DNA of 64,000 nucleotides from Euryarchaeota archaeon SCGC AAA252-I15 (GCA_000402775.1 AQSC01000059.1:4257-68256), one strand, 5' to 3'. Positions 9,319 through 56,974 are shown, numbered from the stretch's first letter. Numbers and translations: made by a program. Notes: generated by a model not told the origin, from the letters alone.

Positions 9319-9822
9319 ATGCCTGACAATCGACCATCCTGGGATGATTATTTCATGAAGATTGTGTATACTGTGGCAGAACGGGCTACATGCGATCGTG
9401 GGAAAAATGGGTGTGTGATATCAAAGGACAAGAGAATTCTGGCAACCGGTTATGTTGGAGCGCCCGCAGGGCTTGCCCACTGCGATGAAGTAGGTCATCA
9501 AATGAAGACTGTGACGCATGAAGACGGCTCTACAAGCAGGCATTGTGTTAGGACTTGTCATGCTGAGGAAAACGCGATAGTCCATTCTGCGAAAGTCGGA
9601 GTCTCCGTGGATGGTGGGACTTTATACACAAAGATGATGCCTTGCTATTCATGCGCAAAGATGATCATAAATGCTGGTATAAGAAGGGTCGTGGCAGACA
9701 AGGATTATCATGCGTCTTCTGAGTCAAAAAAGATTTTAAATGAAGCAGGAGTCGAATATTCAATATTAAAACCTGAAGTCGAATGCTACGACGACCAGTG
9801 CATTGAAAAAAAATCCAAATGA
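9319..9822 (+). CDS. dCMP deaminase (cytidine/deoxycytidylate deaminase family)
   Basis: Zinc motifs HAEENAI and PCYSCAKMIINAGIRRVV. The ATG at 9319 avoids overlap with the giant ORF; the ORF-track start at 9247 overlaps it. Confidence 0.85.
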   Translation: MPDNRPSWDDYFMKIVYTVAERATCDRGKNGCVISKDKRILATGYVGAPAGLAHCDEVGHQMKTVTHEDGSTSRHCVRTCHAEENAIVHSAKVGVSVDGGTLYTKMMPCYSCAKMIINAGIRRVVADKDYHASSESKKILNEAGVEYSILKPEVECYDDQCIEKKSK

Positions 9823-10367
9823 CGTTGGTTATTGGCCTAATCGGGCGCATCGCATCGGGGAAAGGCGAGGCTGCAAAATATCTGTCAGAAAAGTATTACG
9901 CCAAGACTTTTCGTTTTTCCGACATACTCAAAGACATCCTCGAAACATTAGGAATTGAGGATACTCGAAAAAACCTCCAACTTTTAGGGGAAACCTTGAG
10001 AAAATCATTCGGGGAAAACATTCTAGTAGACGCGATGCGGTCAAAGATTTTAAGGTCTGATTCAAAAATTATTGTAATCGATGGTATTCGATACGCTTCT
10101 GAGGCAAAAATTGTACGCTCATCCAAACCAAATTTACTATTATTCGTGGATGCTCCACTTGAAGTAAGATATGAGCGTGCTGTTTTGCGGAGTACTAGGG
10201 GGGAGTCGGATATTAGTTTGGATGATTTTAGAAAATCTGATTTCAGCGGTACTGAGGCAATGTTTGACGAGCTTGTGGGGTTGACTGATGTTGTGATTGA
10301 TAATGTTGGGGATATTGAAGAGTTTCAAGTCAAGGTTGACGAGTCTGTTAGATCACTTATTGCTTAG
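9819..10367 (+). CDS. P-loop nucleotide/nucleoside kinase (dephospho-CoA-kinase/dNMP-kinase-like)
   Basis: Walker A IGLIGRIASGKGE at the N-terminus. Small size. 4-nt overlap with the dCMP deaminase gene. Confidence 0.6.
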   Translation: MTLVIGLIGRIASGKGEAAKYLSEKYYAKTFRFSDILKDILETLGIEDTRKNLQLLGETLRKSFGENILVDAMRSKILRSDSKIIVIDGIRYASEAKIVRSSKPNLLLFVDAPLEVRYERAVLRSTRGESDISLDDFRKSDFSGTEAMFDELVGLTDVVIDNVGDIEEFQVKVDESVRSLIA

Positions 10368-10472
10368 TTAAAATTCTGGTTTTTCCATTTTTTTACGGAA
10401 GTTTAAACTTTTATAAGGTATATGTAATAGTTAAGTGTCACATTGATAAAAAATAATTGTTGGGGTGTCATA

Positions 10473-11327
10473 ATGTATGATAATGTGGCCTTATCAAACA
10501 ACAAAGAATATAATATCGAAAAAGTATTATCTCAAAGAAAACCCTTATCAGACACACATCTTATGCATTATTCCCGTGACAATACTCACCCTGTTAATGT
10601 CCGATATCTTATTAAAAACAACGACTTTTTCATCTCTGACCCATTTGAAGTTCTAAAAGACTATATTAACTCGATTGACAAGCGGCCTTTATTCATAGGA
10701 ATCGATGGTGGATCATGTGCTGGAAAAACTTTTTTTGTAAAAAAACTAGTCAAGAGGCTGACTAAATCGAAAATACACCACCACGTAATCAAAATGGATT
10801 ACTACGTAATCGGTAGGAAAAAAAGATTGCCTCCGAGTGAAAAATTCTTTGACATGAAAAAATGGTTTAAACTCACTCAAGTAGAAGAAGACCTTGAAAA
10901 AATTAGTGGCGGGGGCAAAACACTTTATATTCCAAATTATGACCACAAAACCGGGAGGGAAACAAAAAAGATAAAGCACACAATCAACAAAAACGATATT
11001 GTATTAGTAGAAGGTATGTATTCACTGGATGATTCAATAAGAAAGTACTTGAATTTAAGCATACTGATACATACAAATTCAAAAGTCAGGCTTCAAAGGG
11101 AACTATTAAGAAACACAGCTCGTGTGGATGAAACTCCAATATTCATTAAAAACCGTTTCATACTAGCCTCCGACCCATCTTACAGAAAACACTTCCGGAA
11201 AGTTAATCCCCACGCAAACATAATCATTGACAACAACGATCATAATCAACCGAAAATAATTCACATAGACGACCATATACTCAACGACACAGGATTAAGC
11301 TGGTATCGGACTGCGTTCTACTCTTAA
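10473..11327 (+). CDS. Uridine kinase/phosphoribulokinase-family protein
   Basis: FIGIDGGSCAGKTFFVKKL (P-loop), IPNYDHKTGRE and VLVEGMY motifs typical of the PRK/UDK family. GGGGTG SD lies 7 nt before the ATG at 10473. The gene is AT-rich. Confidence 0.65.
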   Translation: MYDNVALSNNKEYNIEKVLSQRKPLSDTHLMHYSRDNTHPVNVRYLIKNNDFFISDPFEVLKDYINSIDKRPLFIGIDGGSCAGKTFFVKKLVKRLTKSKIHHHVIKMDYYVIGRKKRLPPSEKFFDMKKWFKLTQVEEDLEKISGGGKTLYIPNYDHKTGRETKKIKHTINKNDIVLVEGMYSLDDSIRKYLNLSILIHTNSKVRLQRELLRNTARVDETPIFIKNRFILASDPSYRKHFRKVNPHANIIIDNNDHNQPKIIHIDDHILNDTGLSWYRTAFYS

Positions 11328-28768: not shown

Positions 28769-29041
28769 ATGGTTGAACTTAATGTTGTCGCAAAGGTTAA
28801 GGTATTGCCTGAGGGTGTTGACGTCGATTTGGAGGTTATACAGAAAAAACTTTCCGAGATCGTCTCCGATTACGGTAAAATCCACTCTCTCGAGGTCAAG
28901 CCCGTAGCGTTCGGATTAAATTGTATTGAAGCAAACCTTCTTTTAAGCGACTCGGAAGGCGGGCTCGAAGAAATCGAGCGGAAGGTCGCAGATCTAGCTG
29001 GTGTTTCAGACGTAAACGTGTTAGACGTAAACAGGCTCTAA
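28769..29041 (+). CDS. Elongation factor 1-beta (aEF-1B)
   Basis: VVAKVKVLPEGVDVDL...VKPVAFGLNCIEANLLL. The ATG at 28769 comes directly after the L10e stop. Confidence 0.85.
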   Translation: MVELNVVAKVKVLPEGVDVDLEVIQKKLSEIVSDYGKIHSLEVKPVAFGLNCIEANLLLSDSEGGLEEIERKVADLAGVSDVNVLDVNRL

Positions 29042-29050
29042 AAAGAATTA

Positions 29051-29136
29051 GTTTACATGTTTTTATAAAATTTTGTAAACATTAATTCAGATTCCACCCA
29101 TATACGTCTTTTTTCACGTGTAAACTATTTACACGT
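29051..29136. terminator. Convergent-gene terminator region with two hairpins and a T-run
   Basis: GTTTACA(29051-57)/TGTAAAC(29074-80). ACGTGTAAA(29116-24)/TTTACACGT(29128-36) spans the cdc6 stop. An oligo-T run (tctttttt) lies just upstream of the second hairpin. Confidence 0.4.
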
Positions 29137-49246: not shown

Positions 49247-49259
49247 AAAGGGGTTTGTT

Positions 49260-49333
49260 GGGTCCGTCGAGATTTGAACTCGAGTTCCTAGCTCCCAAAG
49301 CTAGAAGGATGGGCCAAGCTACCCCACGGACCC
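49260..49333 (-). tRNA. tRNA-Pro (anticodon UGG), no intron, CCA not encoded
   Basis: Minus strand: GGGUCCG UG GGGU AGCUUGGCCC AUCC U(U) CUAGC UUUGGGA GCUAG GAAC UCGAG UUCAAAU CUCGA CGGACCC, folded as a cloverleaf by hand. Confidence 0.85.
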
Positions 49334-49417
49334 TTCCGTGTCATCGAGCCGTAGCGAAGATGGCACCCGCATGTCAACTGGGCGTGACAGTTGGGGGTCA
49401 AGCTACCCCACGGACCC
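49334..49417 (+). repeat. 65-nt two-hairpin insert plus a 19-nt duplicate of the tRNA-Pro 5' end
   Basis: caagctaccccacggaccc occurs at 49315-49333 and again at 49399-49417. Hairpins GTGTCATC/GATGGCAC (49338-66) and TCAACTG/CAGTTGG (49374-94) lie between. Confidence 0.8.
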
Positions 49418-50212: not shown

Positions 50213-50325
50213 TTGTTTTCGAGTTTTTTAAATCACAACAGGCAGCCCAAGGATTCGAGTTCACATTCCCCTTAAAAAAGTGAGAAGACACCCTGAAAAA
50301 AGGAAAGCTTTTTATAGTAGAGTGA

Positions 50326-50386
50326 GTAATTAGTTACTAGTTAGTTACTGATTAGTAAATAGTTATTAACTAATTAGTTACTAATA
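50326..50386. promoter_or_regulatory. Operator-like TTAGTTACT repeat cluster upstream of the RHH gene
   Basis: TTAGTTACT at 50331-39, 50342-50 and 50375-83, plus TTAGTAA/TAGTTATTAACTAAT variants, downstream of the TATA-like TTTTATAG (50311-18). Confidence 0.55.
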
Positions 50387-50599: not shown

Positions 50600-50893
50600 G
50601 GCTCACATCGCTTAGTTGTGTGTGATTCAGCCACATCACCCCAACCACCTGGTGTGCCCGCTCAGTAGGGGGGTGGGCACACCGCATGGGGGGTGGATGA
50701 ATTTCTAGGATTTCTAATTCAGGATTATCGAGCCGCGAAGCGGTGAAGATAGTCCATTTGATGAACCTTTAGTAAAGGTTCTGCGAAAGAGAGCTGAAAC
50801 CAACCTTTTTCTTTGTCGGAGTTTCCCGACGAGAAACCGCGAGTTAATTGAGGGGTCTTACCGACCCCCCGGTAACGCACATTATAGAAGTAT
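50600..50893 (+). repeat. 290-nt non-coding hairpin array containing relatives of all three gene-5' inserts
   Basis: Hairpins GGTGTGCCC/GGGCACACC (50651-83), GGATTATC/GATAGTCC (50722-55), GAACCTTT/AAAGGTTC (50763-81), a ...GTCGG/CCGAC... hairpin within the 50811-50835 stretch, and a GGGGTC-ttacc-GACCCC hairpin at about 50851-50867. No ORF. Confidence 0.75.
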
Positions 50894-54007: not shown

Positions 54008-54716
54008 TTATCTATTAATCTTTTCGGAAATCTTTCTGAAAACACCTATTAGAGTGAAAGCCTCCCTACCCGACACGAACGCCCTGCCTAAAAGACTTCG
54101 AAAAGTTTTTTTCGCAAGCCCCCTCTCATAATCCCCGACGTGAACGGAATCAATTACAGAATCATACTTTTCAATCAACACATCTTTTTCCACCTTGTTG
54201 AGTCTCCTAAACTTTTTCCGCTTGTGTAATTTTTTTTCAAACTCGCTTCTCTTAAGCTCATAGAGTATGATGGCTGCCGACTGAGCTATATTGAGTGTGG
54301 GATAACTCGGGTTTGCGGGAATGCAAACTAGCACATCACATGACTTGATTTCATAATTGTTTAAACCATGGTCTTCACGTCCAAACACCAGTCCGATTTT
54401 ACCTGAAGTCTTAAGGGATTCCTGAAGGTGTTCAGGGGTAACTGGGTTTCTCATACTGTTTTTATCAGTGGCTGATATCGCGGAAGTTGCAACAAGAAAA
54501 TCAAACTCATTTTTCACTTCCTTAAAGTTTTTGAAAACGCGGGCGTTTTCAAGGACGTCAATGGCATGCATGCTCATCTTCCTTGCTTCCCCCCCCAAGT
54601 TTTGGGGGGTTTACGAGAACCAATTCTTCGAAACCGAAGTTTTTCATGATGCGGGCGATAGAACCTATGTTCCCATCATACAAGGGTTCGACCAAGACTA
54701 CGGAGTATTCTGCCAT
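54008..54716 (-). pseudogene. SpoU/TrmJ-like RNA 2'-O-methyltransferase, reading frame broken in an 8-nt homopolymer
   Basis: N-terminal part [37 protein letters not shown] (frame a). Remainder [19 protein letters not shown]...GLVFGREDHGL...CIPANPSYPTLNIAQSAAIILYEL (frame b). The frames join if the C8 run at 54589-96 is 7 nt. Confidence 0.75.
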
Positions 54717-54784
54717 TTTATTAGGTATCGTCGAGCAAGCGGGAGCGAGCGAAGACGGCACATTTGTCGTCGGCAAACTCCGAC
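54717..54784 (+). repeat. 68-nt two-hairpin insert between the trmJ-like 5' copies
   Basis: GTATCGTC/GACGGCAC (54725-61) then ATTTG and GTCGG/CCGAC (54769-84). 54763-87 matches 50811-35 at 23/25 in reverse-complement orientation; the segment is near-palindromic. Confidence 0.75.
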
Positions 54785-54870
54785 AAACCGAAGTTTTTCA
54801 TGATTCGTGCGATAGAACCTATGTTCCCATCATACAAGGGTTCGACCAGGATGATTGAGTAATCCGCCAT
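54721..54870 (-). other. Decoy ORF: diverged duplicate of the first 28 codons of the trmJ-like gene fused to insert sequence (49 codons)
   Basis: [28 protein letters not shown] + [28 protein letters not shown] double stop ends 1 nt before the downstream ATG at 54716. Confidence 0.6.
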
Positions 54871-54913
54871 AGTATTAATTTATTGTGGTTTATTGAAATA
54901 ACTTAATTGATTC

Positions 54914-56929: not shown

Positions 56930-56974
56930 GGAAAAGTATTTAGTATTATACCATAAAACCATTATACGTATGCG

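Follow-up and report, generated by a model that had tools for sequence, protein, structure and literature searches.

A structurally conserved double hairpin in Altiarchaeota that appears to be the end of small mobile DNA insertions

The locus and its hairpin modules

The sequence analysed here, referred to as the window, is a 64,000-nucleotide stretch from Euryarchaeota archaeon SCGC AAA252-I15 (GCA_000402775.1 AQSC01000059.1:4257-68256). Its gene content is archaeal housekeeping—fibrillarin, ATP-dependent DNA ligase, Cdc6, L7Ae, HerA, and others—and the closest genomes are Altiarchaeota, some of them labelled 'Methanobacteriota archaeon' at NCBI. Among these genes lie three plus-strand modules that share an 8-bp outer stem, an internal loop with GA on the 5' side and GAA on the 3' side, an inner hairpin of variable length, a 7-nt linker, and a second hairpin. 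The features discussed in this report are as follows; M1 to M3 are the canonical modules, M6 is a divergent module, and A and B are the two copies of the longest duplication.

49259..49333, minus strand: intact tRNA-Pro(UGG), whose 5' end lies 4 nt from M1; nucleotides 1-23 (49311-49333) are the left copy of a duplication.
49338..49394, plus strand: module M1; hairpin 1 is GTGTCATC / GA / GCCGTAGC / GAA / GATGGCAC, the linker is CCGCATG, and hairpin 2 is TCAACTG-GGCGTGA-CAGTTGG (class c).
49395..49417, minus strand: duplicate of tRNA-Pro nt 1-23 (22/23 identical), starting directly after hairpin 2 of M1; an AT-rich, promoter-like stretch, read by eye, lies just beyond it.
50722..50781, plus strand: module M2; hairpin 1 is GGATTATC / GA / GCCGCGAAGCGGT / GAA / GATAGTCC, the linker is ATTTGAT, and hairpin 2 is GAACCTTTAGTAAAGGTTC (class a, the commonest type); it has no flanking duplication.
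50756..50782, no strand assigned: linker plus hairpin 2 of M2, one breakpoint of a rearrangement.
50815..50880, minus strand: divergent module M6, tail-to-tail with M2; an 8-bp outer stem with a C·U mismatch at position 4, a 2x3 internal loop CC/AAU, an 8-bp inner hairpin, the linker GGTTTCTC, and hairpin 2 GTCGGGAAACTCCGAC (class b, matching that of M3).
54631..54723, minus strand: left copy (A) of a 93-nt duplication, covering 8 nt upstream of the ATG plus the first 85 nt of a SpoU-family methyltransferase gene and continuous with the rest of that gene (54008-54716).
54725..54784, plus strand: module M3; hairpin 1 is GTATCGTC / GA / GCAAGCGGGAGCGAGC / GAA / GACGGCAC, the linker is ATTTGTC, and hairpin 2 is GTCGG-CAAACT-CCGAC (class b).
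54785..54877, minus strand: right copy (B) of the 93-nt duplication, 88% identical to A overall; a 64-nt block next to hairpin 2 is 97% identical, and the ATG-proximal 29 nt differ at 9 positions.

The three plus-strand modules had been singled out from the sequence alone, and this observation holds: each is present, and each folds in the expected way as the minimum-energy structure on the plus strand with both RNA and DNA parameters. The pattern TCGAGC-N(4-22)-GAAGA occurs 5 times in the window against 0.67 expected; three of these are the modules, and the other two (7200 and 27718) have no stem and are chance matches. Thermodynamic z-scores alone are weak for M1 and M3 (RNA -1.4 and -1.1) and strong for M2 (-6.0), hence the real support comes from covariation, as described below. 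A generic structural descriptor (8-bp stem, 2x3 loop, inner hairpin, second hairpin) gives about 240 hits in shuffled sequence, and is useless without the sequence core. No Rfam 15 family matches the modules at the gathering score or at E<=10; only the tRNA matched.

Some details of the original prediction required correction. In M3, stem position 3 is an A·C mismatch rather than a compensated pair; it is G-C in L007, a strain whose flanking DNA is about 95% identical to the window. The T·G wobble at stem position 4, described as invariant, holds for the three window copies; however, across the 33 copies collected here it is T·G in 17, C-G in 14, and other in 2. The flanking duplications (23 nt around M1 and 93 nt around M3) and the minus-strand module M6 had not been noticed.

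Additional copies and distribution

Contigs of near-identical strains carry the same three modules. Just beyond the window end, in sequence L002, lie a canonical minus-strand copy, M5 (L002:10500-10555, 1.3 kb beyond the end), and a further plus-strand copy, M4 (L002:10627-10680). The M3 orthologue is conserved at the same locus in L035, a genome whose HerA protein is 78% identical, and a distant Altiarchaeales genome (L010) has one copy.

The original prediction had named a wider scan with a covariance model as a test, with the absence of further copies and of supported covariation counting against it. A covariance model built on eight copies found nothing else in about 460 kb of Altiarchaeota loci syntenic with or adjacent to the window, and nothing in 725 kb of other archaea. 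In contrast, one pattern scan of JGI metagenome contigs returned 118 stretches, of which about 20 distinct true modules remained after filtering for stem complementarity; the model then found further copies on the same contigs, with E-values of about 1e-8 to 1e-13 at more than 30 loci overall. Two of these contigs were checked for origin—one shares a >90%-identity protein cluster with a Candidatus Altiarchaeota genome, the other with a 'Methanobacteriota archaeon' genome—and several others come from the same JGI samples as contigs matching the window. Two pattern scans of viral contigs returned only coding-sequence coincidences, with no episomal copy. In total, 33 copies were collected from this lineage.

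Conservation of structure

Base pairing in the module is maintained by compensatory change. In an alignment of hairpin 1 from eight sequences (A2), 95% of cells are paired, 6 of 10 pairs show changes on both sides, 0/500 shuffles were as good, and slid controls were 22-60% paired. In an alignment of both hairpins from 18 class-a copies (A3), 98.5% of cells are paired, 9 of 18 pairs are compensatory (40 cells), 0/500 shuffles were as good, and slid controls were 28-47% paired. The linker and core nucleotides are conserved, and hairpin 2 comes in at least three sequence classes, each with its own linker. The possibility that these are coincidental or purely thermodynamic hairpins, such as terminator-like palindromes with no shared origin, has only the unremarkable z-scores of M1 and M3 in its favor; it is refuted by the covariation, which exceeds every shuffle, by the model E-values, and by the absence of hits in 725 kb of other archaea.

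The 33 copies carry 25 different outer stems, and in those stems there are 25 G·T pairs and only 2 A·C pairs. The module-sense strand is therefore the one that folds, either as RNA or as single-stranded DNA; however, many of the position-4 T·G pairs may be inherited rather than independent, so the number of independent events is smaller than 25. By eye, about two thirds of the 3-nt inner loops are GNA, including GCGAAGC, which is typical of very stable DNA mini-hairpins and speaks against an RNA motif of the host—this is a hint rather than a test.

These features could also be explained by a functional plus-strand RNA motif of the host, such as a protein-binding hairpin with tandem sheared G·A pairs (an L7Ae-like ligand), a 3'-end stabiliser or terminator, or a scaffold joined to an antisense 'guide', which would have spread by duplication. 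The covariation, the G·U wobbles, and purine-rich GA/GAA loops that resemble known RNA motifs speak for it, but comparison with individual families gave no match. The 3' strand reads GC-GAA-GA-U, like the ribosomal kink-turn Kt-7, yet a k-turn register (C-stem, 3-nt bulge, tandem G·A/A·G pairs, NC-stem) is shifted by 2 nt from the pairs that covary (positions 5 and 6 with 3' and 4'); this rests on direct reading only. Of the hammerhead core (CUGANGA ... GAAA around three helices), only GA-[helix]-GAA is shared, the upstream bases are YRUC rather than CUGA, and position 15.1 is G. For archaeal box C/D sRNA (C box RUGAUGA, D box CUGA), UGAUGA spans the linker and hairpin 2 in only some copies and is UGAUCA in others, and there is no CUGA. 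Finally, GAGCCGUA begins like group II intron domain V, but there is no matching 3' strand, and this reading was rejected.

Genomic context

Copies abut gene starts and stops in all four strand configurations, lie inside tRNA introns, and lie in the 16S-23S spacer—the behaviour of an insertion, not of a host-transcript motif. In two cases the complement of hairpin 2 supplies the stop codon of the neighbouring gene: a metallo-beta-lactamase-fold gene at M5 and a thermosome gene in contig L279. Seven of eight tRNA-adjacent copies are antisense to the tRNA; the exception, in L216, is in sense orientation inside the rRNA operon transcript, 1 nt upstream of tRNA-Ala in the 16S-23S spacer. Two copies lie between the halves of intron-containing tRNA genes, and in one such locus, L200, the intron still pairs with the anticodon loop in the classical way.

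No conserved promoter precedes the copies, and their orientation relative to host transcripts and ORFs is mixed. This argues against a plus-strand RNA gene or a host cis-RNA element, although the sense copy in L216 and the several copies in which the sequence after hairpin 2 is antisense to a gene's 5' end can be read in favor of one; we consider this explanation unlikely. The same evidence does not exclude an RNA transposition intermediate, and the data do not distinguish RNA from single-stranded DNA as the folded form. The uniform plus-strand orientation, which the original prediction took as a possible sign of a replication-strand-dependent mechanism, is a local accident: two of the six copies in and just beyond the window are on the minus strand. 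Dependence on the replication strand itself was not tested, because no origin could be placed—a search near the cdc6 gene gave no convincing repeats and no skew shift.

Flanking duplications

Twelve of the 33 copies have direct repeats on both sides, of 13, 19, 19, 20, 20, 23, 26, 33, about 55, about 87, and 93 nt, plus a 19-nt pair 3.4 kb apart; no duplication was detectable around the other 21. In each of the twelve, the right-hand repeat begins at, or within one base of, the end of hairpin 2, while the left-hand repeat lies 0-135 nt, and once about 580 nt, before hairpin 1. The extra left-hand material is not random. In three cases it is a second conserved unit, made up of a polypyrimidine/polypurine hairpin, the dinucleotide TG, two variable hairpins, and a purine run; once it also includes a 141-codon ORF.

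The duplicated segments are gene termini or promoters. The 5' ends are tRNA-Pro nt 1-23, tRNA-Lys nt 1-22 plus 11 leader bases, and SpoU -8..+85; the 3' ends are those of tRNA-Arg, tRNA-Lys, and one ORF; and the promoter case is the TATA motif shared by hsp20 and thermosome genes. A different hairpin element in L200, of the polypyrimidine/polypurine family, is flanked in the same way by 21 nt of a tRNA 5' end.

The SpoU duplication is the longest of these. The ATG of copy B opens a 49-codon ORF that reads through M3 and stops 4 nt before the real ATG; a coding explanation for the module was nevertheless rejected, because M1 lies beside a tRNA and other copies are in all frames and contexts. 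Among 16 Altiarchaeota loci that carry this gene, only the window lineage (the window and L007) and L035 have two N-termini, and the other thirteen show the uninterrupted, empty-site state. In the two long coding cases at SpoU, a block next to hairpin 2 is 97% identical, whereas the part nearest the ATG is much more diverged. Differences between the two copies are biased to third codon positions, with 16 synonymous against 9 non-synonymous codons over three pairs; this is suggestive of both copies having once been functional, but by our rough estimate it is not clearly above what one functional plus one decaying copy would give. A diversity-generating retroelement was rejected, because the A/B differences are not adenine-specific and lie at the 5' end of the gene. 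Logan contigs end inside the 93-nt repeat.

One explanation for these repeats is a non-autonomous transposon or retroposon, in which the repeats are true target-site duplications made by staggered nicks about 20 bp apart or more, the 3' end is precise and the 5' end variably truncated as in target-primed reverse transcription of SINE-like elements, and the conserved hairpins are the 3' recognition structure of an RNA intermediate. The exact 3' junction, the 5' extent of 0 to about 600 nt, the repeat lengths with a mode near 20 nt, and the G·U-tolerant, one-strand structure would all fit, as would the similar duplication made by the different hairpin family and the three independent tRNA insertions that break at D-loop position 19-23 and near position +1. 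However, no reverse transcriptase or transposase was seen in any module-bearing locus, of which only part was screened, and we know of no prokaryotic element that uses this mechanism. In addition, the 3.4-kb member described below carries genes on both strands plus an integrase. No near-identical copies were seen at unrelated sites, so there is no sign of a recent burst, and copies differ by compensatory changes, which implies long residence. We regard this explanation as unlikely, though it is kept alive by the weak points of our preferred reading.

A second alternative is a REP/REPIN-like or IS200/IS605-like palindromic element, mobilised as single-stranded DNA by an HUH (Y1) transposase encoded elsewhere in the genome. 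One-strand-specific imperfect hairpins, clustering with other hairpins in intergenic arrays, positions just after gene ends, and the presence of both orientations speak for it. In contrast, the four bases upstream of hairpin 1 vary, with no conserved 5' GTAG-type tetranucleotide; the two hairpins of a module are unrelated, so there is no left-end/right-end pair; and those families do not make long flanking duplications. No Y1/HUH gene was seen in the Pfam listings of the loci examined, which cover about 100 kb of this organism, so its genome was not tested for a cognate enzyme. This alternative is likewise improbable, though the same weak points keep it, and a functional plus-strand RNA, alive.

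Links to recombination

The original prediction stated that no transposase is present at the locus and proposed looking for a recombinase elsewhere whose ends carry the module. No transposase or recombinase was found in Pfam listings for the window, and the search elsewhere was positive once. Contig L239 reads, along its plus strand: tRNA-Lys; 3 nt; the module (reverse complement); a 256-residue tyrosine recombinase (PF00589, 72 bits; best solved relatives archaeal XerA, then IntI4 and XerD); two more genes; and a 19-nt copy of the tRNA-Lys 3' end followed by a second module. A third module with a 33-nt duplication lies upstream of the same tRNA. This 3.4-kb unit has the same layout as the small ones—repeat, hairpins, cargo, module, repeat. 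A protein more than 90% identical to a neighbouring gene of this contig is encoded in sequencing run SRR3951959, a run that also carries window sequence. An SSV-type split integrase was rejected on direct reading, because the reading frames across the two att copies differ.

Two further observations connect the module with recombination. In L279, two near-identical modules sit at the same position of two homologous heat-shock promoter motifs, and the sequences at the left ends of the two insertions are also homologous. Strain L007, about 95% identical to the window across 10.6 kb of flanking DNA, differs by a rearrangement, most simply an inversion, that joins position 65343 in window coordinates to position 50782 in inverted orientation. 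The 27-bp overlap at the junction is exactly the linker plus hairpin 2 shared by M2 and M5, whose near-identical stretches lie 14.6 kb apart on opposite strands.

The association with an integrase must be weighed against its rarity. Only one of about 35 copies is next to an integrase, and integrases 33-42% identical to it in other archaea (three look-ups) sit next to tRNAs without any module, so the module is not a general feature of that integrase family. The L239 element could therefore be an ordinary tRNA-integrating element that landed beside resident modules. No excised circle, empty-site polymorphism, or free attP was seen, including no empty-site or excised variant of the L239 element among 8 contigs; movement through a circular attP form was not assayed here.

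Interpretation

We tentatively read the module as the conserved, structured end of a lineage-restricted family of small integrative DNA elements in Altiarchaeota. In this view, an integrated element lies between two direct copies of a short host sequence, here called O (13-93 bp, mostly 19-26), which is nearly always the very end of a gene—a tRNA 5' or 3' end, the first or last codons of an ORF, or a promoter—and one intact gene copy survives. The left side of the element varies, and can be nothing (M1, M3), a second set of hairpins, a small ORF, or three genes including a Xer/IntI-like tyrosine recombinase. We propose that the unit 'module + O' is an attP-like site; that the recombinase, supplied in trans for gene-less mini versions such as M1 and M3, recognises the module as a folded single strand, in parallel with integron attC sites and the CTX-phage attP hairpin; and that exchange happens in or next to linker/hairpin 2, within sequence shared with the target. 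The one-strand bias suggests this recognition as a folded single strand. The small copies might instead depend on host recombination.

The analysis itself establishes the structure and its covariation, the one-strand wobble bias, the duplications and their right-hand boundary, the restriction to this lineage among the sequences sampled, one integrase-bearing member, and rearrangement breakpoints inside the module. Recognition by the recombinase, the single-stranded DNA form, mobilisation in trans, and homology-directed target choice are our inferences. A tyrosine recombinase does not by itself explain how each gene-less copy came to carry a different O, and the clustering of repeat lengths near 20 bp would also fit target-site duplications made by a staggered cut. 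The interpretation given in the original prediction, of selection on a structure acting either as a plus-strand RNA or as a DNA hairpin recognised by a recombinase or transposase, is partly supported: selection acts on structure and the plus (module-sense) strand is the one that folds, whereas the uniform orientation does not generalise.

A bolder and less likely possibility is that Altiarchaeota harbour 'att-only' mini-integrative elements, gene-less units of about 60-220 nt consisting of a folded single-strand recognition hairpin plus a copy of a host gene end, moved in trans by a Xer/IntI-like tyrosine recombinase. This would be an archaeal counterpart of integron attC or CTX-type single-strand recombination that targets the starts and ends of genes and tRNAs; alternatively, these may be the first SINE-like retroposons of an archaeon.

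If our reading is right, the module is a compact, sequence-flexible, and structure-defined recombination signal in an uncultivated archaeal phylum. It would show how very small elements can colonise a dense genome without killing genes, by duplicating the gene end they hit, with some copies even supplying the stop codon. It would extend single-strand, structure-guided site-specific recombination, so far known from integrons and CTX-type phages, to Archaea outside integrons. It also identifies concrete causes of genome rearrangement and of assembly breaks in these metagenome-assembled genomes.

Comparison with known systems

Among small structured units in archaea, the MITE-like C/D-box sRNA elements of Pyrobaculum calidifontis (PMC6009581) have also multiplied and overlap gene ends in both orientations; however, C/D boxes are absent here and no guide function is evident. 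SINE/LINE-type retroposition shares the exact 3' end carrying a conserved stem-loop, the variable 5' extent, and the variable-length flanking duplications. It differs in that no reverse transcriptase was found, there is no 3' tail, the mechanism is not known in prokaryotes, and the full-size relative encodes an integrase.

MITEs and REP/REPIN elements (bacterial extragenic palindromes mobilised by RAYT transposases) are likewise short, non-coding, intergenic, hairpin-forming, clustered with other hairpins, and lineage-specific. A census paper already ranks Ca. Altiarchaeum hamiconexum first among archaea for the density of miniature inverted-repeat elements, without characterising any family (PMC11602168), and our reading would give content to that result. 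In contrast to these elements, the module has no terminal inverted repeats in the usual sense, its ends being unrelated hairpins; flanking repeats are long and variable rather than a fixed 2-10 bp; no GTAG motif or RAYT gene was found; and copies differ by compensatory substitutions rather than random decay.

Archaeal and bacterial tRNA-targeting integrative elements resemble the family described here in having direct repeats of tRNA or ORF termini that leave one intact gene, with a repeat length that differs from element to element. L239 is a textbook case, with tRNA-Lys, an integrase, and a 19-nt repeat; an integrase gene inside the element was seen there but not at M1-M6 or the other ~30 copies, which leaves assignment on this feature undecided. 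Most copies have no genes at all (about 61-220 nt), they share a conserved structured arm, and 5' ends of genes are targeted as often as 3' ends.

Integron attC sites and the CTX-phage attP hairpin, on which tyrosine recombinases act as folded single-stranded DNA, share design principles with the module: an imperfect hairpin with an unpaired central region (here a 2x3 internal loop) and a variable terminal structure (here an inner hairpin of 6-18 nt), conservation of structure while sequence drifts by compensatory change, and one active strand. The only associated enzyme found is also Xer/IntI-like. The module lacks RYYYAAC/GTTRRRY boxes—the outer six stem positions vary freely, and the invariant bases are TC-GA...GAA-GA next to the internal loop—and there is no cassette array and no attI; the window and related loci carry housekeeping genes between copies and no intI. 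Furthermore, copies are flanked by duplicated host gene ends, which attC insertion does not produce, and a second, unrelated hairpin is part of the unit. We therefore class the module as part of a miniature mobile or integrative element with an unusual, structure-defined end, with a smaller chance that it is something more novel.

Features of the window and of related strains

The SpoU methyltransferase gene (minus strand, 54008-54716) is frameshifted in the window by a run of 8 G at 54590-54597; in contrast, contig L001, which is 99.7% identical, has 7 G and an intact gene. The frameshift is probably a homopolymer assembly error, or possibly a strain-specific pseudogene. The 93-nt repeat affects assembly: four independent Logan assemblies (contigs L002 and L004-L006) break at the same base inside it, with all four contigs starting at window position 54819. 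The duplication therefore fragments short-read assemblies of this organism.

Two further features lie upstream of M2, one of the double-hairpin modules of the window.

50321-50386: a tandem array of an 11-nt AT-rich unit (AGTTACTAGTT-like, 4-6 copies), in the spacer upstream of M2.
50600-50720: a GC-rich structured stretch, GTGTGCCC...GGGCACAC within CCACC...GGTGG, directly upstream of M2.

The tandem array gave only weak, chance-level Rfam matches, and the GC-rich stretch gave no Rfam match. The GC-rich stretch travels with M2 in the rearranged strain L007—it could be the left part of the M2 element or a separate small RNA.

Short GTTTAC/GTAAAC-type repeats and a palindrome lie just downstream of the cdc6/orc1 gene, at window 29003-29130. 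These could be origin-recognition boxes. Cumulative GC skew shows no clear turning point.

Comparison with related sequences revealed two differences in gene content. Relative to window position 56943/56944, the related strain L007 has an insertion of ~790 nt (L007:2237-3029) between the pyrophosphatase and DNA ligase genes, which carries one ORF of about 245 codons and has no module and no obvious flanking repeat. A related contig, L088, carries an extra 501-residue GlnE-like gene (L088:15254-16759) that is absent from the window at the corresponding point (~23378).

In other Methanobacteriota / Methanophagaceae, a conserved GAGCCYCGAAGGGCRTGAAGATGCG stretch resembles the inner part of M2 (L063:4200-4234 and L073:6201-6235). 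This stretch did not score with the covariance model, and is probably a coding coincidence.

A promoter-like motif, tRNA introns, and a second hairpin family

A conserved promoter-like motif, TTTTATATACATYCAAACC, occurs four times in contig L279 (4231-4258, 4871-4897, 5479-5497, and 5631-5650), where it precedes a small membrane-protein gene, hsp20, and the thermosome gene. The motif is probably a heat-shock promoter or operator, and two of the four copies directly follow modules.

Modules were also observed within tRNA genes. Contigs L200 (5240-5400) and L293 (2100-2330) have intron-containing tRNA genes—tRNA-Arg UCG in L200—whose intron holds the module in reverse complement. In L200 the intron 3' part CCGGAG still pairs with the anticodon loop CUUCGG. 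ARAGORN did not call these genes.

We also observed a second abundant hairpin family, which consists of a polypyrimidine arm, a 3-nt loop, and a polypurine arm (CCTTTCTTTTT-AGA-AAAAAGAAAGG). The hairpin is often followed by TG...TTTCATCCCCAAAGAAAGAAAA, a second purine run that could in principle form a triplex. Members of this family were seen at the following positions, on the contigs indicated and in the window.

L200: 5130-5260
L211: 31-60
L248: 4370-4440 and 12050-12090
L279: 4269-4300
L035: 4895-4925
L216: several
Window: ~28731

In L200, one such element is flanked by a 21-nt duplication of a tRNA-Arg 5' end. In L216, the 16S rRNA gene (9588-11213) carries an insertion of about 125 nt (10215-10342, minus strand) that is built from two polypyrimidine/polypurine hairpins, and the bases AAAC are duplicated. 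In the same locus, about 5.5 kb separates tRNA-Ala from the 23S gene. The insertion sits between GCTGAAAC and AAACTTAAAGGAATTGGCGGGGG, near E. coli position 908, which is a known archaeal rRNA intron site.
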